Source: Lingula anatina (taxonomy: Eukaryota; Animalia; Brachiopoda). From it: a stretch of DNA of 64,000 nt. A program made the position numbers and the translations under genes. Location of the stretch: the NCBI GenBank assembly GCA_051362555.1, contig CM120640.1, positions 20,460,001 to 20,524,000 on the forward strand, read 5' to 3'. Of the stretch, positions 16,570-55,317 are shown in pieces; within the stretch, counting starts at the first letter, position 1; each line of letters opens with the position of its first letter. The notes beneath the pieces are model-generated. The model did no database searches. It had not been told where the DNA came from and saw only the letters and a program-made list of their open reading frames with translations.

Positions 16570-16646
16570 TTCTCCCACTGACATACTGTGAAAACTGTTA
16601 TTACGGCTGCTGGTTGTGGTCATTTCAGTTGACACTCGGTTTGGAA
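16570..16646 (-). CDS. aGPCR exon: Ser/Thr-rich C-tail ([25 protein letters not shown]); may read on to the stop at 16450
   Basis: tttcag acceptor with phase 1 match. Candidate donor gtaaat at 16569. Confidence 0.65.
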
Positions 16647-19600
16647 CTGAAAACAGACGATATTGGAAAGAGATATCTATAAAAACTGTGCACAAAGACA
16701 ACAACCAGAAAAACTGTTGAAAGCTAAGTAAAATAAGACAATGATGTGTGTGATACAGTGAAAAACACCATACCAAAGACAGACAGAAAACCAAAGACCC
16801 AGATGTAATTTATCTTGCATACATGTTAATTCATCCATGTGTCAGTCATGCAAGAAGGTGAATATCTGCCATCACGACAACAAGTTATGTTGAAATAATT
16901 TAATCCAAACAAAGATACTAGAGGCTATGAATATTATTTTAAGAGAAGACATTTTTTGATGCAATATTCTTTTATTGATCAGAGGACTACTGATTAAGAA
17001 TGCATGTTCTACATCTGGCTGTACGTGGCTGTATGATGAAAATGTTTTACAACCTATCACTTTGACTTTCTCTTACCTTTTGAAGAAGAGTTGAATGTGG
17101 AGCTGTCTTTGGGTTTTGGACAGCAAGGCAAACTTCTCATCCACATCATACGAACATCATGCTTCAAGAAACAATGGAATATGAATACAAAGAGTCCTTG
17201 CAAGGAGTTGAAGATGGCAAACAAATAGTGGAATACTATGAACTTTGCACTGAAGGTAAAGAAGGCAAAAACCCAAGTCAACCCCAGCAAGGCCATGATG
17301 CCCAGGGCTCCTCGGACTTGAGACACCGAGGATGCCTTCTGGGTCTTGGTGATCTTTTTCTGCTGGACATGGCTCCGGACCTGATGAAAAACTAACCCAA
17401 ACGCCACAAAATTTATGACCACTGTCACAGCCACTGGGGTTATCACAGTCACATACATGGGTATAACTGTAAGCCAGCAGCTGAAAGAAATGAAAAATAA
17501 AAATTAATTGTCCAATCTTCTAAATTACATTTACTCTTCAAATTAAACACTCTGAGTCAAACAAATGTTGACCTTTTGAGAAATAAAATGCTTCACCTTT
17601 TCTGCATTGTTTGCAAATGTCTTAAAACATTTATCCATTAGAAGATATTTTGGCAATTCTCTTTAAGTATTTAAATTCAATTTGCACTTTCATTTTTGTC
17701 TTTCGTAGACACTTCAATTTTGACTAATCGTATCCTTATGATATTTCTTTTTTTAACTTATTCTCCTCATATTGATTTCAAAACAAAATAATTACAAAGC
17801 CTCCTCATATCCTGTGTAGTAGTTGTAGTTGTCTATGTTGATGGCAAGTGTGATTGCTACTATCACCAGTGGAACACCTGAAGCATTTGAGAAAATCCTA
17901 AGTCATTGAACAGTAAGTGGGATGAATAGGTCAAAAGTTATTTCTTGCATGTGAACTTTTTGTCATTTTAATTAAGAGGTTCAGTGTTAGTTACTCTAGT
18001 TGGTAACTGAATACATTGTCTTTCCTGCTGTGCTAGTACATTTTAGCTCCTATTTCATAGCTATGGTTTCACTTAATTCTGAATACCTTCCTGAAAAAAA
18101 ATTATTTGCCATCAAGGCCAATTTTTTTCTGGGGAATTTTTCAAAATAGATTTGAACATGAGAACAACTAGGAACTGTAAATAACATGATAAATCAGAAA
18201 ATGTTTTTTAAAAATCCCAATCAATTGTCAAGTTGGAGAGTTTCTGGCATTATTACATCACTGAACATTCTACAGACAAAGTAGTTACACTATTTACCCC
18301 AGCCAACTATGGCAAACTTGAGCAGAAGCTTCCTGTAGTAAGTCTGGAAAACTTTCACCAGAGCCAAGTACATGTAGAAAGCTTCTATCAACATCCACAT
18401 CAGAGTTGCCAGCAAGAAGTAGTGGAGCAATATGGCAACAGTCTGGCAAGCATAAAAGAAATATGATTGAGAAAATGCTCTTCAGTTGGAATCTGGTTAT
18501 GGGAAGGGTGGGCCCCTCCCTGTTTATCTATTGGATGCATTGAGAAGTAAAGAAAAACACACAATGACACTATGAATCTGTTAGTAGGTAAGAAGATACA
18601 TGTAAAATATTACTTTTATTTTGCTTTGGAGACAAGTACATAACATGAAATTAAATTACAAAAGAACACATAACTCATCTCATCACCAACTGACCAATGA
18701 CAAAGGACACACAGATGAGAAAAGTGCTGGCACAAACTTCCCTTTTATTTTTTAGGGTTAATATATATATATATATATATAATTTCATCCATGGAAAAGG
18801 TTGTTTAAATTTTGCACAAAAGCATTAAAAATATATCATAGTAATAAGAAATGCAAGCATATACTTGCCTTATAAACAGATTTAACATTTACCAACACTA
18901 CCCACAGATCTTTTAGCACTAACGCCCTTATAATCAACCCTCTATCAGGGCGACAGATTGATTTTTCACAAGATATTCACAGATATGTCTTTAGATAAAT
19001 AGACAGTCATTTCATTCTCTGCCACCCTGTGATGAAATCTCAAGGATGATTACATGGCTGGTAATTGTTTGCATAACTGCTCAGGCAATGCCACTTAACA
19101 GGCCCAAGCCAAGTCCCTTTGACAACAATCAAGACAGTTAATTGTTCTGTTTTTTATCACTTGCTCTTTTGTGACAGATAAAAATAGCCTCTTATGAATA
19201 GCATGTTACTTCAGATTGAAGTTAATTGAAGAATCTCCTGTAGTAGCTCCCTACAGTTTGGATACAATGCCATCTGCACGTGCACAGATTTAATTGCTTC
19301 CATCTGGCCAAAAGTCACAGGGTGGCTTTTTCAAGATTTCCCTATAATATTTGCCACCTTGGTAAAGGTAATTATTAACCACATAACCCACAAATTACGT
19401 AACCTTGTCTGGAAAAATCATTGGTCTGGTTGCGTGCCAGTTGTTTTAATTTTAGACATTATAGCAAATATCTACAAGATAACTGTGACACAAAGGCACC
19501 CGAAATACATATTAACATGTAAAACCATACCATACCTTGCACACAAAAAGATTCCTCAGGTCTTGTGTTCCAGTTACATAAACAACATTTAAACCCAGCA

Positions 19601-21187
19601 AAGCAAAACACAACTGGATCAAGATCTTGGAAGGAGTGTCTTTGCGCAACTTCCTAGAAAATACATTGTGTTACACATATTCATGTCAAAAACATGCAAT
19701 CAAGCATTCTACAAATAATTGAGATAAAGGCATACAATGAGTGTAGGATCTTTCTAGAGCAATTATAATAATAATAAAAGGAGATAATTTTTTGGTTTTT
19801 TCAGTATCACCAAGTATGGGGAAATTGTCATTTACCCCAGGAAAATAAAATTTGTGGCCAAAATGAACGGTTTTTATCCCTTTAACAAATTACGTCAAAC
19901 TTGTTACGCATCACAGATATGTTAAAACCAAGCAATAATGATAAATAACTACACAAAACAATTACATGTATGCCAGGTAGGAGATGATTGTCAACAACAG
20001 ACCCAAAACGCTGAGACCACAGCCCACATAAGTGACAATCATCAGAATTCTCCTGTTTAGTGGATCAATTGCTGAACCCGAGCCAAAAACATCCTGCAAT
20101 CAGACATAAAATGATTACTGAAGATTATTTCCCGCATTATCACACAAAGAAGCTTATACCAACTAATCACCATGAGAAAATTGAAGTTAATCAAGCTTTA
20201 TTACCTATGTCAAGGTACTATCAGATCACATATTGCATGTAGATTTCTATAACATGAAAGACAAAATAGAGCACGCAAAACAATTGTGCAACTTTAAAGC
20301 CAGAGGTGAAGGACTCGGCACTTAATTTCTGACAAGCTGACCAGCACTATATGTTTTCAGGTTTTTCAATCAAGATGGATGCAAAATAAAAGCTCTACAA
20401 TGATTTAAACACATTAACACACAGAAAGTCAGAACTCTTTGAATATATGGCTGATCATACCACCTTTATTTAAAGTTACATATGAAGTCAAATCTTTGCT
20501 TTTAACCCCAACCAAATGCCACCATATAGTTTCAAACAGCATGCTTCCCCCAAAACCGCATATGAACAGATATTTTGTTTTCTTTCTGTGTTATGTATAA
20601 TCCTCAGTTGTTTCCACCAATGCACATTTGAATACTTACTGGTATGCCATTTCATGCATCATACAATACTACGTACCAGTACTAAAAGGACTTTAACAAA
20701 ATGGATAATAGGACACTTTACAACCAGAATTTTTAAGAAGGTGCAGTTTTTTTAAGCTTTTTTGGCTTACAGTGATAAATTTGGTTTATCCTTTGGCATG
20801 ACAACTTTATTTGAGTCATATAGGAAACTTTTATAGGGAATATATGCACATTCATATATAACTAAGGGCTCATTCCCAATGAAATTATTGGTTTATGTAG
20901 ATTGATCCAACTCTGAAGGGAGTCTCGCTGAGTGTACGTAATCAGATTCAATGAATGACAAGCCTCCTCTTGGCCATGAGTAGAATACAGAAAAAGGTGA
21001 TTATATGAGTACATTAAAAGCAAGAGGAGGCGTGTTAATATTTTAATCTGATTGCATTCAGCAAGAGACCCTGCAGAGATCAATCTATGTAGAAAATTCA
21101 TTTCTTTGGGAATGAGCCCTGAAAACTAAAACTTTTACCAATAGGTGAGGGTTTTAAAATTAAAAAAAAAATCCCAGCAACAATCTG

Positions 21188-21253
<66 letters not shown>

Positions 21254-24200
21254 CTTGATTCACAAAACAACAATCTAAACTTAAATTGACATATGTCCAC
21301 AACCTGACAATAAACTGACAAAAAACTAAATGTAAATTCAGACCCAGCTATATTGTTTTGCTGAACTTGGACCTGCAGTTTTATGAAATACATTATATGT
21401 ACTTAAATAAAAAAAGGTAACTCTATTACCTTTCTCAATTAAGATAATATGAATCAGCTAAATCTCAATCCGATGAAATAAATATCACACAGGATTGAAA
21501 CTGGTGGGGTTCACTGGCACTTACCACCAGCAAAGCAAAATTAGTGAGATGGTCACAATGGCAGACCGTCCTGTTTCCTGGCTGGTCACCTGCCAGTCTA
21601 CAGCCACGCCCTGACCATCCTCCTTGACCACTGTTGGCAGAGAAGTCCCAGAATACACACTGGGAGTTGTTGACTGTCTGGAATGGAATGAATGACATGG
21701 CTTTTGTTGAGGAACCTCACTTAGAAAGTGTAATATAAAAAAATAGATAAAAATACAGAAAAAAACTAATAAAAATACAATACAGCCCTTCTTCAAAAAT
21801 TGCATAATCTCAAATGCATATTAAACTTGACAAACAGAATGGTGTAAACCCTTACAGAAATGATTCAGTAAATTTTAAAAGAAATGTGACTTGTTTCATC
21901 CTAACAATTTATATCTTTTATCTGTACCAAAAACCAAAGTGACTTATTTTATATAAATAACAAATAAATGAATAAATATAATCACTTCTTTTTCTCTCTC
22001 CAGATGTTTGAATGATATAGTGACTGGGTCAGCAAGGTTCTGGACGGTCAGTCCGACCACACTGCCTGCTATGATGTGACCATTAATGTCCACATACGGG
22101 TAAACACTGGTGTTGGTCTTCACAGAGCCAGGACTGTTGCTAACAGAGGCCAGTACCTGGAATACAAGAACAAGAGAATGTATTTCATTCCTGATGGGAT
22201 TGATCCAATAGTTTCTCATAAAAATTCAATGCCACACTTATTCTAATAGGTTTTTATATGTGGTTACTCGGTAAAAAAATAATTTCAAAGGTGAACCTAA
22301 CTCATTTTTTTTTCAAGTAATATTAAACAAGGCATCTTGACAATATGGTATGAATTAGTATGCCTTGCTTTGTTGGCCAGGAGCTTGGCATGTATTTTTT
22401 CAATGTTGAAAATTGATTTTCTGTACTTAAATGGTGAAAATCTGTCCCCCATCCTCAGACTTGCTATGATGCATAATCAGTTAGGATCCGTTCACATGAA
22501 AAATCTATCTTCTAAAAATCTATTTGTGGTATCTTGTGATCATGGTCTGTGCCCTGAATACCCTGCGGTGTAATTACTGGCAGCGCTGAGAATTAATTAC
22601 AGCTTTGGAAGTAACTGGCTCGCGCTGCCTGTAATTACGTCGCGGGGTATTCAGGGCACAGACCGTGATCACAAGATACCACAAATAGATTTTTAGATTT
22701 TTAAAAAATAGATTTTTCATGTGAACGGAGCCGTAAACTTTGAGAGCCCTAGGTAAAGCTACTGCAAAGTAATGTTGAACAAAACAGGCCAAAGAAATTG
22801 TCTGTATGTCTTATGCCCAATGAAGCTAGTTACTGTTGAAAAAACTTGATAGGGTTGTTCAATCTAAACTAGAGGATCAGAGAGGTGAAACTGCCTGCGG
22901 GTGTTATACCACCAGCTGGATAAAGGGAATTCATATGGAAAAAAAAAAAAAAGGGATATCATCTCCAGTGTTGTGATTGACAAGCTCTACCAAATGCAAT
23001 AAACAAGAGTTCTTAATTTTTTGTAGAAAATTACAATTGATAACAAAATTGTGGGAAAAAGCAGAAGGTTAAATACAAGGTACATTGCAGTAAGATTGTG
23101 AAAAACAGACATCTCATCTATAGTACTATGGGTGTATCTCTGCCAGTTTTGGAGATATAAGGGACGGAAAATTTGCAAAGTTGAAATAAAGGTCAAAGGT
23201 CAAATCCAAGAGCATATTTGGAATTTCCACAGTTTGGGAGATATTTAACATTTAATTTTCTTAAATTTGGACAAGTGTACTGACAGAGCCCAAAATGTAA
23301 GTATACTGAGTTGAGATTATGTGTGACCTAAATTCAAGAGATGGGGACACAGGCCCTTGTAGTCTAGGACACGAAGCGGTGATGGTGACATGGCAGAAAA
23401 TATGGCAGATAAAATGGGTTGGATCCAAAACCTATGCTGGCGGTACAATTGAAACACATTTGTTATAATGTAATTACCTTAAAAAAAGTATTTTGTTGGT
23501 AGACCACAAAGTGGACTCTGGAAGCACTGGCTTGCTGAGTGACATTCAGTCCTATGAATAATGTCCTTGGCAGACGTATGCCAACATCAGCCACATCTGG
23601 GACAGGTTCATTCTCAGACCCCACCAGTCTAACCTAGGTGACAAAAAACTTCTTTAACTAATTAGAAATTTGTACCATTATAACTGTTAAAAAGGGTTCA
23701 GTTTTAACTGAATTGAATTTATTTTAGTTATTTGTTAAGTCAAACAACCTCTCTGTTGGAGATATAAAACATCACATTTAAGTTCATATTCATATTTCAC
23801 TTACAACATTCTCATTAGTGTTTCTTCCACTCGATACAGAGTCAAATCCTAAACCACTGAATTCTGGGTCTGATGCATTTGCTGAGACAACTGACACTGC
23901 TAAATTTGGGGCCACAATGGTCAGATTCGTTCCCGAAATATCAACTTTTTCAGCAAAAGTATCAATACCCCGTAGTATCCTGCAATATTGAAAGGGGGCT
24001 AACATAATAAATAAAGAAAATTTAATTATTTGAAGGCTGAAGTTTAGCAGCTGTGTTAGCATGGGCAAATTGGTTTAAAGAACATGGGAAAAATTTTTTA
24101 AACATCTTTTGAACAAGGCAGCAAAGCTGTCAAATTTACATAAACAAAGCAGAAAAAAAAGGATGGATAAAAAAGGTTATTTTGTCAATTTTAAAGCAAT

Positions 24201-27200: not shown

Positions 27201-30200
27201 TTGCGATGCATACACCAGGAAAACAAGAACTTACCAGATATAATTTCATGACTATTTAAAATGTGTTCATGGATGCATGCAAAAGCATCATCATGCAATG
27301 TCAGCTTGTGAAGGCCAGCAGTCAAATCCATTAGCGGACATTGCCTCTGACAGTTGCTCCGTGAAACTCGGGATATTGCAATGAAGTGAAAAATTTTTTT
27401 ATATGACCATTTTAACATAAAACATCACGAAATGTACATATCTCATATGGGATGTAAACCTTTCCCTCTGAAGCGATTATGTGACTTTCTGGGTTGGAAG
27501 GTTAGGATGTTAGTGGCCACGTACACATCACACAAGCCTAATTTGTAATATACTTATATTCATTAAACTGTGCTTTAATCATATTTCTTAGTAAGATATA
27601 TTCGTATTATAGCAGCACTTCTTCCAATGGCATTACTCATTGTGTGCATTCGCAACTATTATAAAGGTCCATTGAGAATGAGTTTGGTTGCAATAGCTAA
27701 TGCATACTAACTCTACGTTTGAGGGATGAAAAATAACATATGGCTTTTAATAGATTAGAAAGTCTGTTTCTCTGATTTTTTTCTTTTTGCTGCACTTGCG
27801 TACACATTTCATTTGAAAAACAGCTCAACTCGCAAATGTGTCCATATTCTGTGATGATCTGGTGCAAAAGATGTTGGTCATTATGTTAGTACCATTGTAC
27901 CTCCTAACAATGACACTTAAGATGAGAATGATACAGTTAATGATTATATTTACTAAAATGTATTTAGTAAGCAATATCTGGAAAAGAAATGAAAAACTAA
28001 AATGATAACTCTTGAAAATATACCTTGCAATAAGTAAAGCAATTAAGAATATGACAAACTTATTATTGATTTGACTTAAGCATCTATAATAAAGCCTATA
28101 ACGTACTGAGAGGACCTTCATAAAATCTAAGAATGTCTAAGAATACTCTAGCCATCTTATTACCTGTTCACTGACTGGCTGTTTGTTTCTGACTTCAGCA
28201 AAGAGTCTTGGCCACTCCCCAACAAATTACTTTGGGTGTGCACGACATCATGTGCAACACGTGCTACGTGTGTTGAATTTAATGCTAGAATGCGGTCCAA
28301 CAGACCTGTGGCTATTTCCACCTCTCCCTCTGATAATTCTTCACTGGATGTTGCATTACGTAATGATCCTGATATCTCCTCAACATTATCTAAAAATATC
28401 AATTCATTTCAACCATTTTAATTAAATTGAATTAAGTTTGTGTATTGGTAGCCAACAAACTGAGGATTAGGAGCACTCCCAATATAATCATAATGAAAAA
28501 GAATAAAACCTGAAGATACTTAAATATTTCTTCAAATAAAATCAAAAGTTATGGATGGATTTTGATGAAATTTTCAAGCAGAATACATAAAAAAAAAATC
28601 ATTTTTTGGGAAACATGAAACAATGTCCTATGGTAATTCTGTAAGTTATACTATATGAATCTATACGGTAGCATTGAGTTGGGTTTTGTGGCATGTAAGT
28701 TTCTCTTTTGGCTTAAAAATGTTTAAAGGGATAATAACTCTTCATATGAGATCTATATTTCACAATAAAAACATTGTTAACAACTCATAAAAATATAACA
28801 TATTCTGTTTTACCACAAAAACGGCAGTTATAGCTATTATTCTGATATCTGAGCTTGTCATTGGACCACATGACCTCCATAGATGGCTATACTCTATAAA
28901 AATCTCTTAAGAGATTATTACAAAAAACAAACTTTTTAGAAAAAAAAAAAACAGGGACTAACTTTGAATGTAGAAATGGATTCATTAACCATTGATAAGT
29001 ATGGGAAAATTGTTTACTCCAGGAAAATTAATTTTTTGGCCAAAACGAACAGTTATTATCCCTCTAAATATTGCCAGTTGGTGTATGATAACTGAGTTTT
29101 TAAGACAAATCCCCCCTGCATGAGGAAATAATCTGATTATCATAATCCTAACCAGCATATCTTATCCAATCACAGTCTACATGCAGCCACTAAAAGCAAG
29201 CACTCTCGTCTATTACAGCTAATCTCGACAAGAAGTAAGATGTCTCTGATCACTAACAATCCTCAATCATTGTGCACATTCTGGTTTTATGCTTCAATTT
29301 AGCAGATATATAGGTAAGATAATACTTGCTTTCCATCCCTGTTTCCTCCCCATAATCTCCTCTTGCTTACAGTAAACCTATTCTGTACTCATAAAAGTTT
29401 ATTTTCTTTGTAATAATATGTTATATTATTGCTTTTATTGGGTAATCTAGTAGTGCAAGCCTCTTTAATGAACATTTGATCAGATCAGCCATCTTGACGT
29501 GCACCACCACCCATTCAATTTTTATAATAGGATATTATGCAACTTTTAGCTAAAACCAAAAAAATTTGCCCATCATTTTCCATGAAAATAATAAATAAAA
29601 ATAAAAAACACATACCTTGGTCCACTTTTGTATCATTCAGATCAAGGAGTACTTTTCTTTGAGCTGTCATGCAGTTGTCATGGTTCGGGGGCAGCCAGTA
29701 TACAATTCCTGTTGGAATGTCTAATGTGCTAGGAGGAAAGACAAACTGCTCTAACATTTACAACAATGATGAGACTAAACTCAGTCTAAAGTTTCTAACA
29801 ATCATCACATATATTCATGAATACTTTTGGAAAGTCATCATTAAAGGGATAACAACTGTTCGTTTTGGCCAAAAAATGGATTTTCCTGGGGTATTAGACA
29901 ATTTTCCAATGGTTAATGAATCCATTCAGACATTAAAAGTTAGTCCAGTTTTTTTTCTCTAAAAAGTTTTTTTAGAGAGGTATAGCCACTATGAGAGCCC
30001 ACATGGTCAGATGACAAGCACAGATTCCAGTATAACCACTGTTTAGTTGGTAATTTAAAAATGGAATTTATTGTTTTTCTATGAGTTCTTTTTTACAAAT
30101 TGTTAAATTGTGAAATATTAATCTGATATCAACAGTTGTTGTTTTAATTCAAAACCATGCTGGATGCTACTTTATACATATACCTGTACTCACCACTGTC

Positions 30201-31015
30201 TTACAGCAGTAGCAGGAAGATTTCCTAGATTGTATCTGCAGGGCAAGGAAAAAGATCTTGTGATAGTTGTCAAGTTGATCCATCTGTCTTGCCAAGTATA
30301 ATTTCCTTTGTTGCTGCTATCAATACTATGTAAACATACACCTTCAAATAGGAATATCAACATATCAAAATAATTAATAACAATGATAATAACTTACAAA
30401 TTTTAAATAAAGAAGGAAAAGACAGCTACACTGCTTTCAAGCAATTGTACTTTATGGTTTAATATATAATTTAGCAAAAGGAATACATTACTGAAATATT
30501 TAAGATGTAACGTACCCAAAGAACCATCTTTAAAATACATTCCATTCAAAGCAACATCCATAAATTGATTGTTTTTCTTTGCTGTACTGATTGCATTAGA
30601 AATGTTCATTCTGGTGACAGACTCATTTGAAATACTGCTGACAGTGGTACGAATCCTAACATATGACACAGTGCCATTGAAGCCAACAACAGGGCTGCAA
30701 AATAAAAAAAAATTACAAATCAAACATCACTGGAATATAACAGTGGCATCGCAGGCTCATTGCAGATAATTATTATCTTAGGCCCCATTCCAGCATACAT
30801 GTATCATCTGTCTACATAGATTGATCAAACTCTGTGGGGACTCTTGCTGAGTGCAACCAGTTTAACTGAATGACACACTAAATGTCACACTTTAAATTAA
30901 TCTGCATAGACCGAGGGTGTCTATGGAAATGGGATATTAGTGAGGCCTTATCCGACATCATTAATTCAAAACAGTTTTAGGACTTAGATGTCATACAGAG
31001 GGGCCTTAATTTATC

Positions 31016-42162: not shown

Positions 42163-42193
<31 letters not shown>

Positions 42194-45183
42194 ATACACC
42201 TTGACCAGGGATTACAGTTTTAAATAACAGTGAAGCAGATGAAAAACATAAAAACAAAACAGTATTTCAGTAAAAGTCAATAACTACCTCCTGCTCCAAG
42301 AAAATTATGTAATACATACATGACATTTCTATCAGTCCTTGACGATTACAGTTATCCCCAAGACAGCAAGAGTGGTTTTGAGAGCTGGCAGGGTTAATCT
42401 CTGCTGTCCTTGTCATACAAGCATCCAGGTTAATGCATTCCTTGGTAATGCTTATGCCACGTCCTGTGGTAGCAATAAGATCACTACAAGAACTCTGAAA
42501 AGATAAAGAATGAACCTTTTCATAAATATGCAAAACTGTCCGTTACTTTGTTTGTACAACTTTTTGTCAAACTACTATTTTCATCACAAAATAATAGATG
42601 CCCCCCCCCCCAAAAAAAAAAAAAAAAAGACTCATTAACTTCATTTTTGTTTATCAAAGAAGTAAAATACTACAACGTAGTGAAATACTTCCCACTCATA
42701 GCACTGAAATATAGACCAAGCTTCAAATATCAGCTTTATCAGCTAGACAACTTATGCTTCAGTTATTAATTTTTTTTCTCCAGCATGCAAATATATTGCA
42801 TACAATCCTTAACACAGAAATGTAAAGCCAAGACATTTGGTCAATTCCCTCTAATTTACTGGTCCCATTTATTATAATAATTGTGAAATATAGGTTAATT
42901 TTGAATAGTGAGTTGTTAACTTGACCATTTTTTTGTTTTTCCCTGACATTTTATCCTTTTCAATGCAATTAATCTATAAATCAAGTAAATTATTTTCCTC
43001 AAATGCATTAAAGTTCATAGCACTGAAGTAAGAATCACCATGGAATTATCATCTGGTCTCAAATAGTCAAATATAGGTGAAGATAAAAAGCAGCTTTAAT
43101 TAATCATTTCCCTTGCATTTATTTCATGCAGCATACAATTTCTTCAACTTCACAGAATTTGTCTATATTTCACCTGATACTTCCTGATATGTGCACTCAT
43201 TTCTTTTTCTGATATTGGTCTGTACATTTGACAGCTTTGCTGCTTTATTTATGATATCTTTTAAAAACATCTTTTATTATTCCAAAGTAATTTTGCAACA
43301 ATATCTGCACATGGTTCTGCAGTGAGAGTAAGAAATGTTTTTCTAAGAATGTCCACAACCGTGACTGTGTCAATCAATATATACACCTGGTCCATTAATG
43401 TGACAGTGAACATGAAAAACATAATGAACATTGACAATAATATCACATTTAGTTATGCACATAGTTATTATAAAAATTGCTTAAAGACACAAAACTAAAG
43501 TCATGATTCCTATAAAGTTTTTTCTTGTGGGGATCTAGAATAAACTTAGCTTGGTTGATGCTATAAATCGGCAATTTTAGGCAACTTGAAAAATCCAAGG
43601 TGTCAATTCCTGTATAAATAAACTCTAAATACAGGTCTATTATAGTGCTTGGACCATTATTTAGACCTCTAATACTGTAGGTAAATTTGTATTAATGTGG
43701 GAAGAAAATACCAATCTAAGTGATATAAGGCAAGTATATGAGGTCAATTGTTCACAATACGTAATAAGAGATGCTAATAAACTATGACAAAAGAAAAAAG
43801 ACTTGCATACTATACTTAGTCTAATCTATATATATAGGTTCAAACAAGGTTCAAACAATTGTGGACTGTAATCTAGCTACCATTATGCATGCATTAAAAT
43901 GCATGTACAACTGCTTAACAGTTATGTGTTAGAAGTAATATTCAATAATTCAAAAGTTAAATTATTCTATATGCATGATGATGAATGAAGTAATAAGTTT
44001 ATCACAAATAAAATCAAATAAAACGTCCACATCCCTGTTTGTATGGTCCACTAAGAACACATGATCCATGTAATCTATGGGTTGGAAAGTCAAGAAGGTG
44101 CAAATCTACCTGATGTGTGACGCTGATCAATAAACTGCAGTGTAAAAAACAAGAGTGATTTTTAGATGATGGTGATAAATGCATTATAAGCTCTCATCTA
44201 TGAACAGAACATACTAGACTATACTAATTTATTTGCACCTTCAGGCATGTACTGGAATTTAATCATGACTCCAGAGTTGATGGCATTTGATGACAGTGAC
44301 ACCTACATGCATGCATGCAGTGACTTCATCATTCAAAACTGCTCACCTGGCATTAACTCACCACAAAGTACCCAAGTTATGGAGGAGGAACATCACAAGA
44401 AAACAGCAGCAGAAATACCATTCTGAATATTCATAAATTAATGAATGAGGCATCATCAATCAACATATGGAGACATTAAAAACTGGAGGCATGCAAGTAG
44501 GTTTACTGGGAGAAAGAAAGACTTTTCAGTCCAGTGTCAATTAGTTTATAGGCTCAGATCTATTACGTAGACTTGCAAACATGGTTGAAATGGGTATATT
44601 GTTAAACCCACTTTTCAAATATTTAATGATTATATAGGCATATTATAAAAAGGATCATTACATGATAGTATAATTCATGGGTTTTGTAATGAAGTTTATG
44701 CAAAAGAATTGGTAACTGAAGAAGCAAAAGAAAATTGTAAATATCTTTATAAAGCAATACATAAATGGGTAATGACAAAAATAGAATGTTGAGCTTATAG
44801 CATATTCTCCCATAATTTCAAGCTAAAAAGAGAAGGATTTAGAAAAGAACTAAATACACATAAACAAGCTAATCATGGAAACATTAAATTTGATGACTTT
44901 AAATTACAACTAAATAAATAAATGAAAAGTCAGAGAGATTTATGTTACAAAGTTACAGTAAGGAGGAATAAAAAGGTTGAAAAAAGTTCAAAATATTTTC
45001 TAAATCTTGAAAAAATACATAATGCCAACAAAAGTAATCCAAAACCAAAGACTTATAGGTATACTGTGTAAGATTACAGTTCATCTTTTGCAAGTACCAT
45101 AATTATTAGTACCAACTGATGTGTTTACTTGTTTTTTTCTTCTCACTAGCATGTTATTTCACTAATTTACTTTGGTTAATTGC

Positions 45184-45239
<56 letters not shown>

Positions 45240-47479: not shown

Positions 47480-47530
<51 letters not shown>

Positions 47531-49633: not shown

Positions 49634-49672
<39 letters not shown>

Positions 49673-52600
49673 TATATAGTTAAGTTTAGAAATCCACGTC
49701 CTTTAATTTATCTTAATAAATACATACAAATGCTGTAGCACACCTTTGGGATAAACATGAATTTGCCAAGGAAACATTGGTGCAAGTGTAGCAGTTATTA
49801 CTAAAGGGCAGTTCTGAAAGCAATAAAATGGTTAAAAAAGTTAATAATTAAACCACATTCAAATTATATTTTATATGTCTGATTAGTAATGTGTCAAGTT
49901 TCAATACTATTAAATGTGCATTGCAGCAAGTACAGCTAACACATTTTATGTATTTGATTGAAGACATGAATTGCTGACTCATTATTTTATTTATTTATTT
50001 TTTTAACATATATATTTTTATGATGCAGTCAAGAGCAGACAGACCTAGGTTAACATTTAATGCTTCAACAGCCTGCCTTAGACTTCCTCCTTGTGTACAA
50101 TGAATGCTGTCTATAATATGGCTCTGGGAATGTCTCTGTTGAAGGAATGTGTACACAGCAAAGGCTGGAGGTATGCAGTTCATAGTCAGTACCCTATAAT
50201 AAAGTTGAATTATTTCATTTATTCAGTTATTGTCAATCACTACTATCACATGAAATTTGCAGATGTGGTATTTTATTGTTACATGGAGCGAGGCAAAGGG
50301 GTACACAATGTTCCCTTTTTACTCGTTTTTTTTGCATGCAAAAAAGAAAAGTTAGGGATATGGGGGTGGCGAGGGAGGGGGGGGGGGTAAGATTGGGGAG
50401 AGGTATTCCCTGCAGGTTTCTTTAATAATCTGCAAAGGGGATGTTAAAGACAATGCATTACCATCCACATTCATGCACTACTTACAGACTTGACAATCTT
50501 GGTGTGTTGATGAAGGCATCAGGAGCAATATATTGGACAGTACCCAATGTCCTGAAATGAAAATTTCTAAATGTAGAAAAAAAGGAAACCACTAGTTTAA
50601 ACACACTCATTTACATCAGATGCAGGAGTAAATGAGTCTTCAATATGTTCTCTTGCTCATCTCCTTCATTTTGATATTATTATTATTATTATTATCATTA
50701 TTATTATTATTATGATTATTATTATTATTAAATAACTTAACTAAGTTTATGAATGCAAAAGTCATACATGTATTTGAAGGTATACTTTAACAATTCCTTA
50801 TTTTTACTTACAAATTAGTGAGAGACCTCAGACCCACAAATGTGTTACGATAGATATTTTCTACACTGGATTTAATTGACCTAAAATCAAACAAAAAAGA
50901 ATATCAAATTTATTACAAATAATCTTATTGAAAAGTCTTTTTACTGAAACTGTCATCCCATGGGTAAGATCATTTGTGGTATAAGTAATATTATAACAAG
51001 GTCTAGGCAAAATGCCCAACCCCCTATTAACATCCTGCCAGATAACTTATTGTAGATTTATAAAATCTATAGATGGAAACATGTACAAAACATAATCTAA
51101 TGTTAGTACAACCATTAACTTGGACAAAATTTAAGTCAATTTGGCTTACAAAGATATCAATTTGAATAATCCTTCAAAAGCAAACTCTTCGATTCTCTGA
51201 ATGGTAGTGTTGGACTGCATGTACCTAGAACAGCAAAGTTGTTTTAGATAATAAAATGCCTTTTCAGTACAAGTACAGTTGGGACATTTGCTAAAACTTA
51301 ATTATTTTTTCTTTATCAAAATATGGAATTAGTAATGAATGGTATTTACTTTATTATTATTTCTTTTATACTAATTGCGCCCTTTAAACTTATTAGTGCT
51401 TTCTCTCTGATTGTTTTCACATATTGGGTCAAAGGAAACTAATCATGCCCCATTTCTTTTAATTTTTTATTTCACGTGTAGGGTCAAAGGAAACTAATCA
51501 TGCTCCATTTCTTTTTTTTTATTTGCTGCTTATGATCAATGGGGCATCATCCTCATTTTGCCTCAGTTTAAGACTTTACTCTAGGTAATACTGAATGTAA
51601 GTGGCACATTTAAGCTTTTAAACTGAGGCAGTCTCATATCTCACTTCACTGGTATTAAGAGGAAGCCAACTACAAAAAATTGCTCTTATAGTTTTCAGTG
51701 CAAATCTACAGGTGACCTTATGTACAGGAAAGTATGTACATGCAAAGGTGACAAGAACATCTTCAAAATTAAAGTAGTGCTAATAACTTCAGAATGTGTG
51801 TATGAAGGAGTGAAGACAAAGGATTTAAAAAAAAATTTTACAAACACAAGCAGAAACTTGAACCAACATGTACCCATGCACATGAGCAAAAAGGTACAAT
51901 ATGGACGCATTCATAACAGAATTGATCCGCCAACTAACAGATCTGCAGATCAAACATGGCCGACCCACTTAAAAGCTTGCCACATAATCCCCTAAAAGAC
52001 ACTGAATAAATTCCCAGCGGGGATTACGTGGCCAGCTTTCAAGTGGGTCAGCCATATTTGATCCCCTGATCAGTTAGTCCACTTACCAACACTCTTGTGA
52101 ATGCTCTCTTTCAGTTACTTCATGGAGTGAAAAAGAAATAAAGAGCAAAAATTAAAAACAGTGTATTCATACTTACAGCAGGGTCAAGTTCGTGAGGTTT
52201 CGAAATATGAACCCTGGCACATCATTAAATGGATTGTCACCGAGTAACCTGAAGAATGAGAATTATAGCTAACATTAATTCATTTTGTAAAAAACTTAGA
52301 TACACAAATAAAATTGTCATTTCTAGTCATTTTTGGTTATTTTCTGAATATTTTTGTCCCTTCAGGAGTTAACCAAAGGAAGAGGTGGTCATTTTTACAT
52401 ATTTAATTTTTACACATGCCAACATGACCAATCGCAGACATATCAAAGAAACTTAAGAAAAGGTAAATTAACTGAACATTGTAAATTAACACAGAACTTG
52501 GTACATGCTATGCATGAAGGGCTGAAAAGCCAATTAAGGCACTTGGCCATTTCCTCACTGTTTCCTTCGACATCGTTGCCACCTTTCTGACCCAGTGTGT

Positions 52601-55317
52601 TTCCAAATGTCTGTCACAAATTACTGTCCACTGGACAACTACAGCACAAACACAACACCAAAGTGATTTGGACATTTGATTTCTACAGCCCCAAGACCAA
52701 AATATGTACATGTACACCTGATATTCCCATCTGGTGACCCTGCCAAAAATTGGCATCTCAGAAATGAACAATCCAGATTTTAAACTACTACTTGAGTTTT
52801 GCTGTGATAGATTATGAATGTTCAGATCACTGGGGGTACAATATAACTAGTTTAGGTGATTTTGGTGTGCTGCATTTGGCTTCCATACAGAACCAAAGCA
52901 TTTTCCTCATTGAGTCTCCCCGACTCCAGGACAAGAACTTTTAGTGACTGGCTGTGAGGGTTGCAGGTTTGTCCAGTTGTCGGCCTTACAAGCTCACGGT
53001 AAGAATACCCTGAGCTTGTAAGGGCGAAAACTGAAAACTGAGGCAAGTTGCAGGTGTACGTCGGTGGTCGTTTTCAACACATCCCATTGTAACCGATTCT
53101 GCTATGATTCTTCCAGCCGGCCCCTTTTGGTGCCATGCTATAAAAATGGAAGAGAAGCGAGAAACATTACTTTTTTCTCTGCCTTGGGACCCGATCCCTC
53201 AAGCATTCAGAGTATCCACTGAAGCACACCACATCAGTTCCAAAAGGCTTTGAAGAGTGTAGAAAAGATTTTTCCTCAATTTGTGAGTGGGCGAGGCAGT
53301 TTTTTTTTTCACGGCCAGATTTCCGCTTTCTTTTGCGTCGGAACTGTAGGCTAAAGATCGAAACTGCGAGGTGTTAGTCTCTTTCTCCTTAAAACTCACC
53401 TTTGTTGCTCAAAATTTCAATATCTGACAAACTAAGTCTCGAAAGGCCTGAAAGAATTCCCTAGAGGTCATATGTTAACTATAAATGAGTAATAGACAAG
53501 ACTGAATGCTGTGAATGAGGGTCGTGAGAAAGAGGTCAAGTCACACGCATGCGCATTTCGGAGATTTCGCCCATTCATTATGTTCATTCAGAGTACAGAC
53601 ACATATTGTACCTGTATAAAGGGCCATCACCTGCGTCCGTCGATGCCGTCCCAGTGCACTTTCAGATATTATACGATATGTTGAAAACCGTTTAGCCTGT
53701 TGTCCCCAAAGTTAGAGCTACAAAACTGATGGATATTGATAAAATACAGGTCTTGGACCACGCACGTCTCACTTGCAAACTTCTCGCAAACTCCATGCAG
53801 CCATGCTGCCTCGCTATTCGCAGACTATTCGTAGAATCTTTTGGACATATCCAACATCCTCCGTACGTGCTTACGGGCTGTCTGCGAACTCCAAATTTCG
53901 CAAGAAGGTTTTGCGCGGCACGTGAGCTTCTGCGCAAAATTTGTACGCAAACAGGCCGTAAGAGCCAGCACGGCCGGTTGTGACCGAGGCTTTACGATTT
54001 TCCAGTCTAGTCAAAAGTTCAGTTAAAGCCTCGGTCACAGCCGGACTCACGAATTTCAGGATCGTACGTCCCCTGCGATTTCTGGATGTTGTGGAGGCCG
54101 TGGAGGTTGTAGAGGTAGAGGAAAGTATGCCTTGTGAGTCGCAAGGGCCACATGAGATGTCCTTTCAAGCAGGGACGCTAATATTGCAAGGAGCGATGGC
54201 CATGGAAATCTCATTTCTTGAATTTGTCTTGCTTCCTGTGTACGTGGCACACACTCACCACTTACGAAGGGAATGCAAAGCACGGCGAAAGTAGTGCCCT
54301 TTTGCGTCAGTTTTGCTTCACTCTTGCCTCACACGTTTGTGGGGCGTACGTCAATTTTGCTTCCTATTCTCTTCTTCTTTCTTCTTCCTCCTCCCCTTTT
54401 TCTACTATGTAAGCTTCTTTTTCTTGCCTTTTGGAGGCATATTAGAAACTAAATTGAGAAAAAATGGGAAAATTTTGAAAATTGTTGTACACGTTACACA
54501 GTCGACGTTCATCGTAAAGACACGAGCGTGCGTCGTGAGCACGCCTTTTATACACCAGGCGTGGGGGTGACGCAGTTGCGACGCATTCCCAGTGTGCTTT
54601 CGACTTTGTTCGTTAGTTGTGAGGGCGTGCACCTTAGACCTACTCATCACGCAAAGGGCACTTGCTCCTTCATTGCTTGCGACGTGAGTCTTGCAAAACG
54701 CGCGTCTCTCTTGCTAACTCAGTGCAAGGGGAGCAAGTTTCGCTTGCGGTCTCGCAGTTCGCAGGCTAACGTAGAATCTTTTGGACATGTCCAACATCCT
54801 CCGTACGTGCTTACGGGCTGTCTGCGAACTCGAAATTGCGTAAGAAGGACTTGCGTGGGACGTGAGATTCTGCGCAAAATTTGGACGCAAACAGCCCGTA
54901 AGAGCCCGTACGGCCGGTTGTGACCGAGGCTTTAGCTTGACAATATCGTAGAGGCCGAAAATCCGTACGGCCACGCACGGCCAGGTCTGCCTCCGCTCAG
55001 ACGCCGTACGTGTATCATACGGATATCGTATAGCAAATGTAACCTAGTAAATTACATTTACGGAATACTTACAATATTGTCGTTTCTTTTGGCACATTAG
55101 GCACATCTCCCTCTAAAATATCACGCAGATTGTTTATACCCCTTGACTGGCAGTCTGTGGAACCTGTGGCTGATGAAAATATACAGGTCGGCTGAAGTGG
55201 CGGCACGGTGGCGGCACCTTCAAGCTTCGATATCCAAACTTGAGACAAGACGAAAATGAGTCCAAACTTCACGGCATATGTATTCCAGGAATGAAGATTT
55301 TGTTTTAACCGCTGCAT
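16570..55317 (-). CDS. Multi-exon adhesion GPCR (ADGRG2/G6-like 7TM) with LRR-LU-SEA-HRM-GAIN ectodomain; gene span, C-terminal end uncertain
   Basis: 23 exons with canonical GT-AG ends and compatible phases at every junction give one open frame of ~1,100 aa. GPS motif CHCDHL|TNFALLV. 7TM motifs [73 protein letters not shown]. Confidence 0.92.
17077..17480 (-). CDS. aGPCR exon: TM5-TM7 and helix 8
   Basis: 404 nt, phase 2-1. CWL...LLGLTWVF...[14 protein letters not shown]. Confidence 0.95.
17796..17877 (-). CDS. aGPCR exon: TM4/ECL2 ([17 protein letters not shown]...)
   Basis: 82 nt, phase 1-2. Joins GW-G-VP and F-CWL. Confidence 0.92.
18298..18442 (-). CDS. aGPCR exon: TM3/ICL2 ([31 protein letters not shown]...VGW)
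   Basis: 145 nt, phase 0-1. Confidence 0.94.
19536..19653 (-). CDS. aGPCR exon: ICL1/TM2 ([25 protein letters not shown])
   Basis: 118 nt, phase 2-0. Resembles the ADGRG2/G6 KLRRDYPSKIL motif. Confidence 0.93.
19966..20093 (-). CDS. aGPCR exon: TM1 ([24 protein letters not shown])
   Basis: 128 nt, phase 0-2, TYVGC.LS motif. Confidence 0.93.
21189..21252. repeat. (AAT)n microsatellite
   Basis: Direct reading. Confidence 0.97.
21525..21677 (-). CDS. aGPCR exon: GPS motif (CVFWDF...GWSGRGC...[15 protein letters not shown])
   Basis: 153 nt, phase 0-0, canonical GPS with HL|T site. Confidence 0.95.
21986..22156 (-). CDS. aGPCR exon: GAIN ([10 protein letters not shown]...[14 protein letters not shown])
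   Basis: 171 nt, phase 0-0. Confidence 0.88.
22484..22732. mobile_element. Foldback MITE (~250 bp, ~100-bp arms)
   Basis: ggatccgttcacatgaaaaatctat...ccctgaataccc mirrored at 22640-22732. Confidence 0.85.
22866..23210 (+). repeat. Interspersed repeat starting aactagaggatcagagagg, with further copies at ~24517 and ~24706-25120
   Basis: Shared blocks ccaccagctgga, catctccagtgttgtg..tgacaagctctac, tctctgccagttttggagatataaggga, aaggtcaa. Confidence 0.7.
23478..23633 (-). CDS. aGPCR exon: GAIN (IRLPRTLF...[14 protein letters not shown])
   Basis: 156 nt, phase 0-0, typical GAIN I.LP..L and F..Y...F motifs. Confidence 0.88.
23805..23979 (-). CDS. aGPCR exon: GAIN ([12 protein letters not shown]...[11 protein letters not shown]...)
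   Basis: 175 nt, phase 2-0, PNLA motif. Confidence 0.88.
25170..27615. repeat. Diverged ~1.1-kb tandem duplication within an intron, with a locally inverted segment
   Basis: 25170-26130 repeats at 26365-27230. 26140-26270 recurs inverted at ~27500-27615. Confidence 0.8.
28164..28389 (-). CDS. aGPCR exon: GAIN helical subdomain A ([34 protein letters not shown]...)
   Basis: 226 nt, phase 1-2, ttttag/gtaata. Confidence 0.87.
28727..29063 (+). mobile_element. Non-autonomous element with AGGGATAATAAC TIRs and TTAA-like flanks (Kolobok-like)
   Basis: ttaa-agggataataac ... gttattatccct-ctaa. Related copies at 29845-30160 (inverted) and ~19777-19884 (deleted). Confidence 0.65.
29616..29728 (-). 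CDS. aGPCR exon: HRM part 2 and GAIN start ([19 protein letters not shown]...)
   Basis: 113 nt, phase 2-1. Completes RQC...W...C. Confidence 0.85.
29845..30160 (-). mobile_element. Inverted copy of the 28727-29063 element
   Basis: ttaa-agggataacaactgttcgttttggccaaaaaa is the reverse complement of 29030-29063. Further matching blocks continue to ~30100. Confidence 0.7.
30194..30341 (-). CDS. aGPCR exon: HRM domain part 1 (VCLH...GNYTW...LPCRY...AVRQ)
   Basis: 148 nt, phase 1-2, C-W-C pattern of the hormone-receptor domain. Confidence 0.85.
30516..30694 (-). CDS. aGPCR exon: SEA-like domain end ([17 protein letters not shown]...DGSL)
   Basis: 179 nt, phase 2-1, tgcag/gtacgt. Confidence 0.82.
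31019..31062. repeat. (AT)n microsatellite
   Basis: Direct reading. Confidence 0.95.
31092..31159 (-). CDS. aGPCR exon: SEA-like domain middle ([22 protein letters not shown])
   Basis: 68 nt, phase 0-2, tttcag/gtaatt. Confidence 0.8.
31928..32360 (-). mobile_element. 'TAGATCGATCTA'-family MITE carrying an internal sibling insertion
   Basis: Outer parts are the reverse complement of 47753-47981. Confidence 0.8.
32084..32298 (-). mobile_element. 215-bp MITE 'D', copy 1, 3-bp TSD AGT
   Basis: Near-identical reverse complement of 60691-60905, with AGT duplicated on both sides. Confidence 0.85.
33475..33572 (-). CDS. aGPCR exon: SEA-like domain start ([29 protein letters not shown])
   Basis: 98 nt, phase 1-0, ttacag/gtatgt. 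Confidence 0.8.
36177..38300 (+). pseudogene. Possible decayed spliced plus-strand coding relic (transposase-like?) in the aGPCR intron
   Basis: Two paralogous exon-like blocks (36177-36252, 36413-36481), each ag...gtaagc; the second has a TAA stop. Further broken frames follow, including ANAESA near 38172. Confidence 0.25.
38863..39410. mobile_element. MITE with ~165-bp near-perfect TIRs, TA flanks
   Basis: agagcgcattctcaacgaattaagccaggctttacaaag... exactly mirrored at the right end. Confidence 0.9.
39740..39988. repeat. ~60-bp degenerate minisatellite, ~4 copies (catcaa..tgtcttttcctgcttgtgtat...)
   Basis: Unit starts near 39746, 39808, 39868 and 39931. Confidence 0.85.
40670..41358. mobile_element. 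Interspersed repeat, copy 2 of the 9260-9952 family
   Basis: Same order of motifs (gtgccgtcattttt, aaatggtgtcatt, gtaagatgacatatgtgtaaatg, aagggtgacaatatac-ttaa). Confidence 0.75.
42320..42494 (-). CDS. aGPCR exon: C-half of LU domain (SSC...[11 protein letters not shown]...SCCLGDNCN)
   Basis: 175 nt, phase 0-1, tttcag/gtatgt, CCxxDxCN LU signature. Confidence 0.88.
44570..45050 (+). mobile_element. Decayed L1/Tx1-type LINE ORF2 fragment
   Basis: [12 protein letters not shown] at 44979-45014, the (G)EK.S.YF.NLEK motif of Tx1/L1 ORF2. Surrounding frames are broken. Confidence 0.65.
45185..45239. repeat. (AAT)n-(ATT)n self-complementary microsatellite
   Basis: Direct reading; abuts ttacag at 45246. 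Confidence 0.92.
45650..47221 (+). CDS. Single-coding-exon class A (rhodopsin-like) GPCR, peptide-receptor-like (CCK/orexin-type orphan), 523 aa, nested antisense in an aGPCR intron
   Basis: Seven hydrophobic segments. GN (TM1), LAILD (TM2), C..DRY (TM3), FALSWAPF (TM6), NNAINPILY (TM7). Long ICL3. Good ATG context (accATGg). Confidence 0.95.
   Translation: MGEKHNLQETEGFPFLPLIPTIIFMVALIIIGTCGNMIVVFVFSLKRKKSTANYYQFILAILDLFACVFLHPYIISKLFNMDNQTNVVPCKIFEFLIHASLLSEGLVLVAVAVDRYYAVCQPMKFVNAFNRTRGMLIAAVTVGVLLSIPLLQFYGVHTVQQKPAYSKYNHTVTRYLCDYSDIYQGSLSQGVFGAVVLLMFCVSLITVTVLYLVIAKAIHDRRRRVEPIRSISAFMTKPGPDAKRLQKTKVDSQKQSVSENIPSKYSTEASTSDSKSTRFTARSEEVATEETQAKKVTNTVCEHEEDTNKLKKLNKNTPLMTKVYFECHLANSSKIEYIKDKSEENCEIIDDAKVINLEQESGTSTEQKNYNMKESTIQQDSSRIKNGSHLHCHSPVSIKTNASLDDKVGKGYLAKEHEKTSAWNWPDKPKQLASKGAKVLFLVTLVFALSWAPFWVIKFASMINPNFWPEKTFLDIAFKVLLMHAFYLNNAINPILYTLMNKAFATDVKDVVRKLRQRLQPEL
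47480..47545. repeat. (GA)n/(TG)n microsatellite downstream of the nested GPCR stop
   Basis: Direct reading. Confidence 0.92.
47753..47981 (+). mobile_element. 'TAGATCGATCTA'-family MITE, uninterrupted copy
   Basis: TIR cattcccatagattttagatcgat / atcgatctaaatctctgggaatg. Confidence 0.82.
49728..49813 (-). CDS. aGPCR exon: N-half of Ly6/uPAR (LU) domain ([23 protein letters not shown])
   Basis: 86 nt, phase 1-0, tttcag/gtatgt, CYTC start of LU fold. Confidence 0.85.
50045..50193 (-). CDS. aGPCR exon: degenerate LRRCT-like cap (VLTMNCIPP...IHCTQGG...)
   Basis: 149 nt, phase 2-1. Bridges the LRR and LU exons in frame. Only two cysteines are retained. Confidence 0.72.
50486..50551 (-). CDS. 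aGPCR exon: LRR 3 ([22 protein letters not shown])
   Basis: 66 nt, phase 2-2, tttcag/gtaagt, IxPxAF..L..L motif. Confidence 0.85.
51150..51224 (-). CDS. aGPCR exon: LRR 2 ([25 protein letters not shown])
   Basis: 75 nt, phase 2-2, tctag/gtaagc, AFxGL LRR motif. Confidence 0.88.
51426..51520. repeat. Short direct duplication gggtcaaaggaaactaatcatgc.ccatt
   Basis: Two copies ~55 bp apart. Confidence 0.8.
51903..52108. mobile_element. Degenerate MITE related to 14838-15128
   Basis: gcattca...gatccgccaactaa...atggccgacccactt inverted as aagtgggtcagccat...gatcagttagt...tgaatgc. Confidence 0.6.
52177..52248 (-). CDS. aGPCR exon: LRR 1 ([24 protein letters not shown])
   Basis: 72 nt, phase 2-2, ttcag/gtaagt, typical 24-aa LRR exon. 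Confidence 0.88.
53760..53991 (+). mobile_element. Right-end fragment of a B-family element
   Basis: Repeats 54770-54931 and ends ccggttgtgaccgaggct-tta. Confidence 0.75.
54027..54931 (+). mobile_element. Harbinger-like non-autonomous element 'B', copy 1
   Basis: TIR AGCCTCGGTCACA.CCGG / CCGGTTGTGACCGAGGCT with TAA/TTA flanks. Colinear with 58120-59365. Confidence 0.88.
55073..55317 (-). CDS. aGPCR exon: signal peptide-like segment plus LRRNT cap
   Basis: MQRLKQ...[20 protein letters not shown]...[22 protein letters not shown]...[14 protein letters not shown] donor, phase 2. Acceptor at 55363 upstream of the ATG. Confidence 0.8.

Follow-up and report, generated by a model that had tools for sequence, protein, structure and literature searches.

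An adhesion GPCR gene of Lingula anatina with a predicted LRR-LU-SEA-HRM-GAIN-7TM architecture and its likely relation to vertebrate ADGRG2/4/6

The receptor gene and its transcripts

The window, meaning the whole 64,000-nucleotide stretch of Lingula anatina DNA analysed here, carries on its minus strand a real, spliced adhesion GPCR gene. Spliced by coordinates, the gene extends from 55317 to 15903 in 25 coding exons, with GT-AG boundaries at 24 of 24 introns and a coding sequence of 3,438 nt in one open frame without internal stop (1,145 residues and the stop codon). Its translation differed at 7 of 1,145 residues from RefSeq XP_013379585.1 (P0099), so that the gene was already annotated and the window shows it in another haplotype or assembly, and a search with exon 23 returned records titled "adhesion G-protein coupled receptor G6 [Lingula anatina]". 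The exons are the following.

Exon 1, 55073..55317, minus strand: start codon, signal-peptide-like hydrophobic stretch, LRRNT (2 Cys)
Exon 2, 52177..52248, minus strand: LRR, 72 nt, phase 2-2; Pfam LRR_8 on P0099 80-133
Exon 3, 51150..51224, minus strand: LRR, 75 nt, phase 2-2
Exon 4, 50812..50880, minus strand: LRR, 69 nt, phase 2-2
Exon 5, 50486..50551, minus strand: degenerate LRR, 66 nt, acceptor as in RefSeq
Exon 6, 50045..50193, minus strand: LRR C-terminal cap, 2 Cys
Exon 7, 49728..49813, minus strand: LU domain part 1 (Cys 1-4), phase 1 in
Exon 8, 42320..42494, minus strand: LU domain part 2 (Cys 5-10, CCxxxxCN), phase 1 out
Exon 9, 33475..33572, minus strand: SEA part 1, by read depth, both junctions and predicted fold
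Exon 10, 31092..31159, minus strand: SEA
Exon 11, 30516..30694, minus strand: SEA final part, phase 1 out
Exon 12, 30194..30341, minus strand: HRM part 1, by HRM matches in relatives
Exon 13, 29616..29728, minus strand: HRM end and start of GAIN subdomain A
Exon 14, 28164..28389, minus strand: GAIN subdomain A; Pfam GAIN 5.9e-5
Exon 15, 23805..23979, minus strand: GAIN
Exon 16, 23478..23633, minus strand: GAIN subdomain B
Exon 17, 21986..22156, minus strand: GAIN subdomain B
Exon 18, 21525..21677, minus strand: GPS with HL/T site, tethered-agonist start TNFALLV; Pfam GPS 4.9e-19
Exon 19, 19966..20093, minus strand: TM1
Exon 20, 19536..19653, minus strand: TM2
Exon 21, 18298..18442, minus strand: TM3 and start of TM4; 7tm_2 4.6e-10
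Exon 22, 17796..17877, minus strand: TM4 and ECL2
Exon 23, 17077..17480, minus strand: TM5-TM7, helix 8; 7tm_2 5e-17; 100% match to P0001
Exon 24, 16530..16646, minus strand: cytoplasmic tail; donor at 16530 agrees with RefSeq
Exon 25, 15903..15922, minus strand: final residues and stop codon

A sequence-only reading of this DNA had described 23 phase-compatible exons ending at 16570, with three LRRs. This outline stood, and the count became 25 coding exons; coding sequence continues past 16570 to the stop at 15903, and in place of three LRRs there are four phase-2 LRR exons (72, 75, 69 and 66 nt), with five strands in the LRR region of the predicted model. Exon 1 matched residues 1-82 of P0099 at 100% and holds a hydrophobic 9-mer at residue 16 (mean KD 2.4). 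Our first model (24 exons, end at 16570, acceptor 50566) was dropped for the 25-exon model that matches RefSeq; the in-frame AG at 50566, 15 nt upstream, is a possible alternative acceptor of exon 5.

Raw RNA reads were aligned to a 338-base stretch around exon 9, which covers 2 of the 24 junctions. This stretch drew 2 reads from X1, 0 from X4, 10 from X7 and 11 from X9, with read depth restricted to exon 9 save one stray read. At the junction 42320->33572, singled out earlier as the one most in need of confirmation together with 50045->49813, loose ends at 33572 in five X7 and five X9 reads agreed with the terminal bases of LU exon 8 in 28 of 30 positions (by eye), and RNA reads in both X7 and X9 thereby link the LU and SEA exons; loose ends at 33475 (three X7 and three X9 reads) matched the start of exon 10, also at 28 of 30 bases (by eye). 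Identity to the window was no higher than 90-95% in 18 of the 21 X7 and X9 reads, which indicates a divergent haplotype or population as the source of these reads; the 2 X1 reads, at 99% identity or above, were too few for a listed loose end. Two further loose ends in X7 and X9 translate to the peptide of a Lingula paralog, described below, and because this paralog differs in the exon 9 stretch the junction reads belong to the window gene. The whole architecture is also found in two assembly records, P0005 (1,305 aa on a 4,783-nt contig) and P0127 (1,155 aa, three members, on contigs of 3,988-4,449 nt), whose contigs leave little space for introns and are therefore likely to be transcripts.

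Domain content of the receptor

Pfam matches on P0099 comprised LRR_8 (1.6e-9) and LRR_5, GAIN (5.3e-5, under the cut-off), GPS (5.9e-17) and 7tm_2 (2.3e-47), and seven helices were present in the full-length predicted model, in agreement with the GAIN/GPS and 7TM parts of the sequence-only reading. The HRM that it had also named stood in part: Cys and Trp positions align and relatives give sub-threshold HRM matches, but P0099 itself had no Pfam HRM match at E<=0.1. Pfam scans of single exons gave no LRR, SEA or HRM match. The LRR C-terminal cap has 2 Cys, compared with 4 in mollusc and echinoderm relatives, and exon 18 retains an intact HL/T self-cleavage consensus followed by the hydrophobic tethered peptide TNFALL. 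An ADGRG6-like core, as had been suggested, was recovered by two routes: the Gpr126 ectodomain was the top Foldseek match (E 2.3e-26) of the full-length AlphaFold model (mean pLDDT 58.4, with LU under 50 and not resolved), HormR-GAIN structures being among the best, and the best PDB sequence matches were ADGRG2 (2.6e-99), ADGRG6 (7.7e-92) and ADGRG4 (1e-66), followed by L3 (1e-58).

The LU domain has 10 Cys with spacing 2-8-4-6-16-5-16-0-4 and contains CCxxxxCN, ending in CN. Toxin_TOLIP matched P0099 in Pfam (4.4e-4; 21.4 bits vs a cut-off of 21.2) and scored 24.5 bits against the same cut-off of 21.2 on the isolated LU stretch. LU and SEA were folded alone with 28 sequences and compared with 48,161 chains; mean pLDDT was 81.9, and 84-93 within LU. 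Residues 4-80 of this model resembled PSCA (Z 9.4, rmsd 2.4 over 74) and Lynx1 (Z 9.4, rmsd 2.4 over 71). LU is thus predicted to adopt a three-finger fold, and the Cys pattern, the Toxin_TOLIP score and this predicted fold together uphold the 10-Cys LU domain first read from the sequence.

The SEA block is likewise predicted to adopt the ferredoxin-like fold, of about 110 residues, that is typical of SEA domains, as the earlier reading of a SEA-like domain implied: residues 86-200 of the model matched MUC16 SEA at Z 9.7 (rmsd 4.4 over 118) and 9.4, transmembrane protease SEA domains at Z 9.2 and 8.9, and Gpr126 SEA at Z 7.8 (rmsd 3.5 over 101). SEA domains ranked 1, 2, 5, 6 and 7 (Z 9.7-8.9), the best non-SEA row, a ferredoxin-like one, scoring Z 8.0. 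Of 12 family members, 4 had a Pfam SEA match (best 2.5e-6); the Lingula gene had none. With the LU+SEA model, no Foldseek match reached E<=0.001; the matches shown included no SEA row and were headed by two three-finger proteins. A family profile of LU+SEA matched LYPD1 and LYPD6 (8e-10 each) and, weakly, the SEA of a MUC16-like protein (0.004) and ADGRF1 (0.009), and profiles made without Lingula found the window LU (6e-7) and SEA (2e-6) in a single-sequence search. The predicted Lingula SEA matches the Gpr126 SEA in fold and position, but a profile-profile comparison of the family SEA with ADGRG6 SEA found no sequence similarity (E 0.23, within 20 shuffled controls), so that the two domains are at most candidate homologues.

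A cleavage motif is not required of all SEA domains. We searched for the SEA cleavage motifs described in PMC6954182 (GSVVV-type, furin): the Lingula SEA lacks a GSVV-like motif and the ectodomain lacks an RxR/KR furin site, so that this SEA is probably not cleaved. Among 13 family proteins, GSLL occurred in 1 and an ectodomain furin motif in 1.

Relatives across phyla and kinship with ADGRG2/4/6

As judged from sequence, the LRR-LU-SEA-HRM-GAIN-7TM architecture is not confined to brachiopods, being found in gastropods, bivalves, octopus and annelids. After two Lingula proteins, 11 of the next 12 matches to the 7TM carry LRR, GPS and 7tm_2, all 11 with a 12-Cys LU, the twelfth being a 642-aa fragment. 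An LU+SEA profile search of 1.84 billion representatives gave 187 matches at E<=0.001, and 36 of the 150 matches listed were scanned, picked by LU coverage and length: 17 had LRR with GPS or 7tm_2, 10, mostly short, had LRR but neither GPS nor 7tm_2 among the families shown, and 9 were other or unclear. Named members came from gastropods, bivalves, Octopus, Capitella, Lamellibrachia, Acanthaster, Diadema and Lytechinus, and Holothuria has a likely partial member of the LRR-LU receptor family; no chordate or arthropod member stood among the named proteins, most of the 150 matches listed having no names. Of the other searches, the ESM Atlas returned two clusters at 0.79 and 0.76, under the level of a lead, a word-based search with the LU exon found the gene's own record alone among 6 candidates, and a word-based LU+SEA profile search (7 matches) added little.

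LU held 12 Cys in 24 of 24 relatives scored and the GPS was of HL/T type in 23 of 24, the count covering relatives whose LU matches the pattern and excluding the degenerate-LU members P0130 and P0227 and fragments. The 10 Cys of the Lingula LU were invariant in 28 of 28 aligned sequences. On this Cys count, 10 vs 12 in relatives, the Lingula copy is a derived member. Between LU and HRM, nine lophotrochozoan proteins have 117-134 residues with 19-24% Ser/Thr/Pro and four echinoderm proteins have 56-927 residues with 47-62% Ser/Thr/Pro, one octopus protein falling outside the pattern; by composition, a Ser/Thr/Pro stalk takes the place of SEA in the echinoderm members.

Several relatives depart from the common plan. 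Octopus has several family copies (P0135, P0140, P0145, P0150, P0158, P0196), some with many more LRRs, which suggests a cephalopod expansion. Capitella P0151 (ELT96794.1) has LRR, LU and 7TM but no GPS block, probably through a missed exon. Amphiura P0169 (XP_072018636.1) bears LRR and a 12-Cys LU on a non-GPCR with C-type lectin, chitin-binding and EGF domains, from which it appears that the LRR-LU pair can move as a unit. Owenia P0213 (CAH1784857.1), a 2,043-aa adhesion GPCR with Ig and C-type lectin domains, has a weak LU-profile match (9.3e-6 at 522-605) and a 7TM outside the LRR-LU clade, and is a possible second origin of an LU-GPCR.

The 7TM phylogeny proposed earlier placed the Lingula receptor with vertebrate ADGRG2/4/6 in both careful trees. 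From a quick tree of 56 rows, in which a Batillaria SRCR-bearing model also fell inside the clade, 18 rows were removed beforehand (near-duplicates, fragments, long branches); the sampling leaves aside ADGRA, ADGRG1/3/5/7, ADGRD, ADGRE and ADGRL. In the 38-row GPS+7TM tree (mixture model), 20 LRR-LU receptors, two Ptychodera proteins and five fish ADGRG2/4/6 formed a clade (98/97), within which echinoderms, Ptychodera and vertebrates stood together (95/93); the GAIN+7TM tree (LG+G4) gave the outer clade at 99/99 without fixing the inner order. AU tests gave p 0.195 and 0.020 for monophyly of the LRR-LU receptors, and 0.24 and 0.30 for all invertebrates including Ptychodera together with vertebrates outside. 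These trees make the LRR-LU family the likely invertebrate counterpart of vertebrate ADGRG2/4/6 and, since it is equally close to G2, G4 and G6, a likely co-orthologue rather than ADGRG6 itself, despite the RefSeq name. The presence of the family in protostomes and echinoderms indicates that the bilaterian ancestor likely had an LRR-LU receptor of this clade.

ADGRG6/GPR126, ADGRG2/GPR64 and ADGRG4/GPR112 share with the Lingula receptor the order SEA-HRM-GAIN-7TM and one supported clade. They differ in the head: ADGRG6 has CUB-PTX, and Lingula has LRR-LU with a SEA that lacks a furin site (Pfam found CUB in fish P0025 and P0043 and pentraxin in P0043, neither being found in P0099). ADGRA2 and ADGRA3 are built as LRR-Ig-HRM-GAIN. 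They resemble the Lingula receptor in N-terminal LRR, HRM, GAIN and 7TM, but carry Ig after the LRR, where Lingula has no Ig match and has LU and SEA instead (ADGRA being absent from our trees). LYPD6 and LYPD1 (Lynx2), the best profile matches of LU and alike in the predicted three-finger fold, are single GPI-anchored domains, whereas the Lingula LU is an internal GPCR module without NxI.

The sequence-only reading had called the architecture apparently undescribed, knowing of no characterised adhesion GPCR with an LU domain. This stands for the full architecture, which we did not find in print, and requires correction for its LU component, as in silico work of 2022, 2024 and 2026 had already recorded adhesion GPCRs that bear LU, without functional characterisation in the accessible portions of those papers. 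LyAr2 and LyAp2 are LU domains inside adhesion GPCRs (PMC9410279), two LU adhesion GPCRs are listed in Asterias (PMC11595613), and coelomocyte and coelomic-epithelium signal has been reported for LyAr2. LU-GPCRs of molluscs, arthropods and echinoderms are given in PMC13719153, where Table 1 has Brachiopoda and Annelida with LU and RK only, so that the present data extend the range of LU-GPCRs to brachiopods and annelids. PMC6900090 treats GPR64/112/126 as one group and includes Lingula, Octopus and Acanthaster 7TMs, and its accessible portion does not discuss LRR-LU ectodomains. Among open-access texts, with subscription papers lying outside this survey, we found no full LRR-LU-SEA-HRM-GAIN architecture, no brachiopod or annelid member and no link to ADGRG2/4/6, a result limited by Fig. 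2B(2) and Supplementary File 1 of PMC13719153, which may show a mollusc member or list the Lingula protein.

Starfish LyAp2 (XP_022094807.1) is our P0154, and the family profile finds it at E 1.7e-10. It shares with the Lingula receptor LRR, LU (235-314), an HRM-like region, a GPS with HLTNF, 7tm_2 and the same 7TM clade, and differs in a 56-residue stalk with 48% Ser/Thr/Pro, vs the 125-residue SEA, and in an LU of 12 Cys vs 10. LyAr2 is XP_033635706.1; in their accessible portions the starfish papers name LU and GPCR only (PMC9410279, PMC11595613). The legend of Fig. 2B(2) in PMC13719153 names GPS and LRR, by which its mollusc example probably belongs to the same family; that legend names neither SEA nor HRM, and the accessible text gives no phylogeny including vertebrate receptors. 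The present analysis adds the full architecture, the range of the family over four phyla, the likely orthology to GPR64/112/126 and the 10-Cys brachiopod member. The LRR-LU family is widespread in invertebrates under automatic names such as "ADGRG6-like" and "mucin-2-like"; if it is the GPR64/112/126 counterpart, Aplysia, bivalves, Capitella and starfish become tractable models for the role of these receptors before myelin and the inner ear, and the family offers a natural domain-swap series (LRR-LU vs CUB-PTX, SEA vs mucin stalk) for head and spacer control of tethered-agonist signalling.

Proposed mode of action and origin of the LRR-LU head

We consider it probable that the gene encodes one spliced adhesion GPCR that cleaves itself, binds ligand through LRR-LU and signals by a tethered agonist, likely through Gs. 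By analogy with ADGRG2/4/6, the receptor itself would cut the HL/T site in GAIN and the two fragments would remain non-covalently associated. From its position, the LRR-LU head likely binds a cell-surface or matrix ligand, and anatomically it would occupy the ligand-binding place that CUB-PTX has in ADGRG6. SEA-HRM, lying between head and GAIN, may serve as an uncleaved spacer or force coupler that relays force or conformation to GAIN, with the Ser/Thr/Pro stalk replacing this SEA spacer in echinoderms. Force or binding on the head would then expose the tethered peptide to the 7TM, as in the analogous receptors, with signalling likely through Gs: the solved structures of ADGRG2, G4 and G6 are, by their titles, Gs complexes, and human GPR126 couples to Gs (PMC6954182).

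LU might instead modulate a nearby receptor in cis, either a nicotinic receptor or a Wnt co-receptor, in the manner of Lynx or LYPD6 but mounted on a GPCR rather than on a GPI anchor, as proposed for starfish LyAr2. LYPD6 binds LRP6 via NxI. LU is closest to LYPD1/LYPD6 by profile and to Lynx1/PSCA by predicted fold, and the CxxCC arrangement of LYPD6 is common to the relatives; however, NxI occurs in 0 of 13 family LU domains, and LU lies between LRR and SEA, distant from the membrane, unlike in GPI-anchored LU proteins. A Lynx2-like role has been suggested for LyAr2 (PMC11595613), and the grouping with Lynx2 has been called irrelevant (PMC9410279); on balance we regard cis modulation as unlikely.

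A paralog outside the window, P0002 (XP_013379590.1), is 71% identical overall and has a 12-Cys LU; a shared longest-contig figure and a near-consecutive accession make it a likely tandem copy, and reads matching it were present in X7 and X9. Identity between the two Lingula proteins is 52-60% over LRR, LU, SEA and HRM, and 90-92% over GAIN-B and 7TM; the corresponding values for two pairs of mollusc orthologues are 64-77% and 80-92%. This contrast suggests that ligand specificity has been diverging or that the 3' half has undergone gene conversion. The same contrast in identity would fit a decaying duplicate whose head no longer binds and which is driven by GAIN and 7TM alone, as would the LU with 10 Cys where all 24 relatives scored have 12, and the 4 Cys before LU where six relatives from molluscs, annelids and echinoderms have 8, the paralog showing the same loss. 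Yet the open reading frame is intact, spliced and expressed, the missing Cys amount to one pair and leave 10 that are invariant across the alignment, and the LU model is predicted with good pLDDT (84-93), so that decay seems to us quite improbable beside a ligand-binding head.

As to where this head came from, exon shuffling onto an ADGRG6-like core had been proposed, on the ground of phase-1 introns flanking the LU module. These introns are indeed in phase 1 (after 50045 and after 42320), but are weak evidence of shuffling, because phase 1 occurs at 7 of the 24 introns and also at both borders of the SEA and HRM blocks. The event was drawn too locally, since the head is common to brachiopod, mollusc, annelid and echinoderm receptors, so that its assembly is ancient. 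Tentatively, at somewhat less than even confidence, we propose that LRR-LU-SEA-HRM-GAIN-7TM was the form of the ADGRG2/4/6 receptor in the bilaterian ancestor, that lophotrochozoans kept it, that echinoderms exchanged SEA for a mucin-like stalk and that vertebrates exchanged LRR-LU for CUB-PTX; descent of the vertebrate receptors from an LRR-LU receptor with head replacement was the best tree in one analysis, but the alternative with all invertebrates together and vertebrates outside was not rejected (AU p 0.24-0.30). If the proposal is true, orthologues of GPR126 exist in single or low copy in invertebrates (Aplysia, scallop, oyster, Capitella, starfish) and bear another ligand-binding head on a conserved force-coupling core.

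Separate addition of LRR and LU to an ADGRG-like core, in lophotrochozoans and in echinoderms or recently in the Lingula lineage, we judge very improbable. The phase-1 flanks, the LU or LRR-LU modules on other scaffolds (P0213 of Owenia, P0169 of Amphiura) and PMC13719153, which leaves independent origin possible, speak for it; against it stand the common order of LRR then LU, the 12-Cys pattern, the shared position near residue 230 and the single 7TM clade across four phyla, and the relatives rule out that the combination arose recently in brachiopods. That gene prediction has fused two genes, one with the LRR/LU exons and one with the SEA-GAIN-7TM exons, is hardly credible despite the long introns around exon 8 (7.2 and 8.7 kb) and an antisense gene inside one of them, given the RNA reads joining exon 8 to exon 9, the LRR with GPS or 7tm_2 in 17 of 36 scanned profile matches and the whole protein on the likely transcripts P0005 and P0127.

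The intronless antisense gene lies on the plus strand at 45650-47221, within the 7.2-kb intron between the two LU exons. It encodes a GPCR of the rhodopsin family (523 aa; 7tm_1 8.9e-34) in which the DRY and NPxxY motifs are present and the third loop is long. Among solved receptors its best relatives are those for ghrelin and neurotensin and 5-HT2 receptors (~1e-16 to 1e-15), none of them a clear orthologue. Dispersed repeats of 120-240 nt with 82-95% identity, some with inverted arms, occur in introns and upstream of the receptor gene (53800-54930, 58100-59370, 31960-32360, 47750-47940 and 60690-60900) and are likely small transposable elements.
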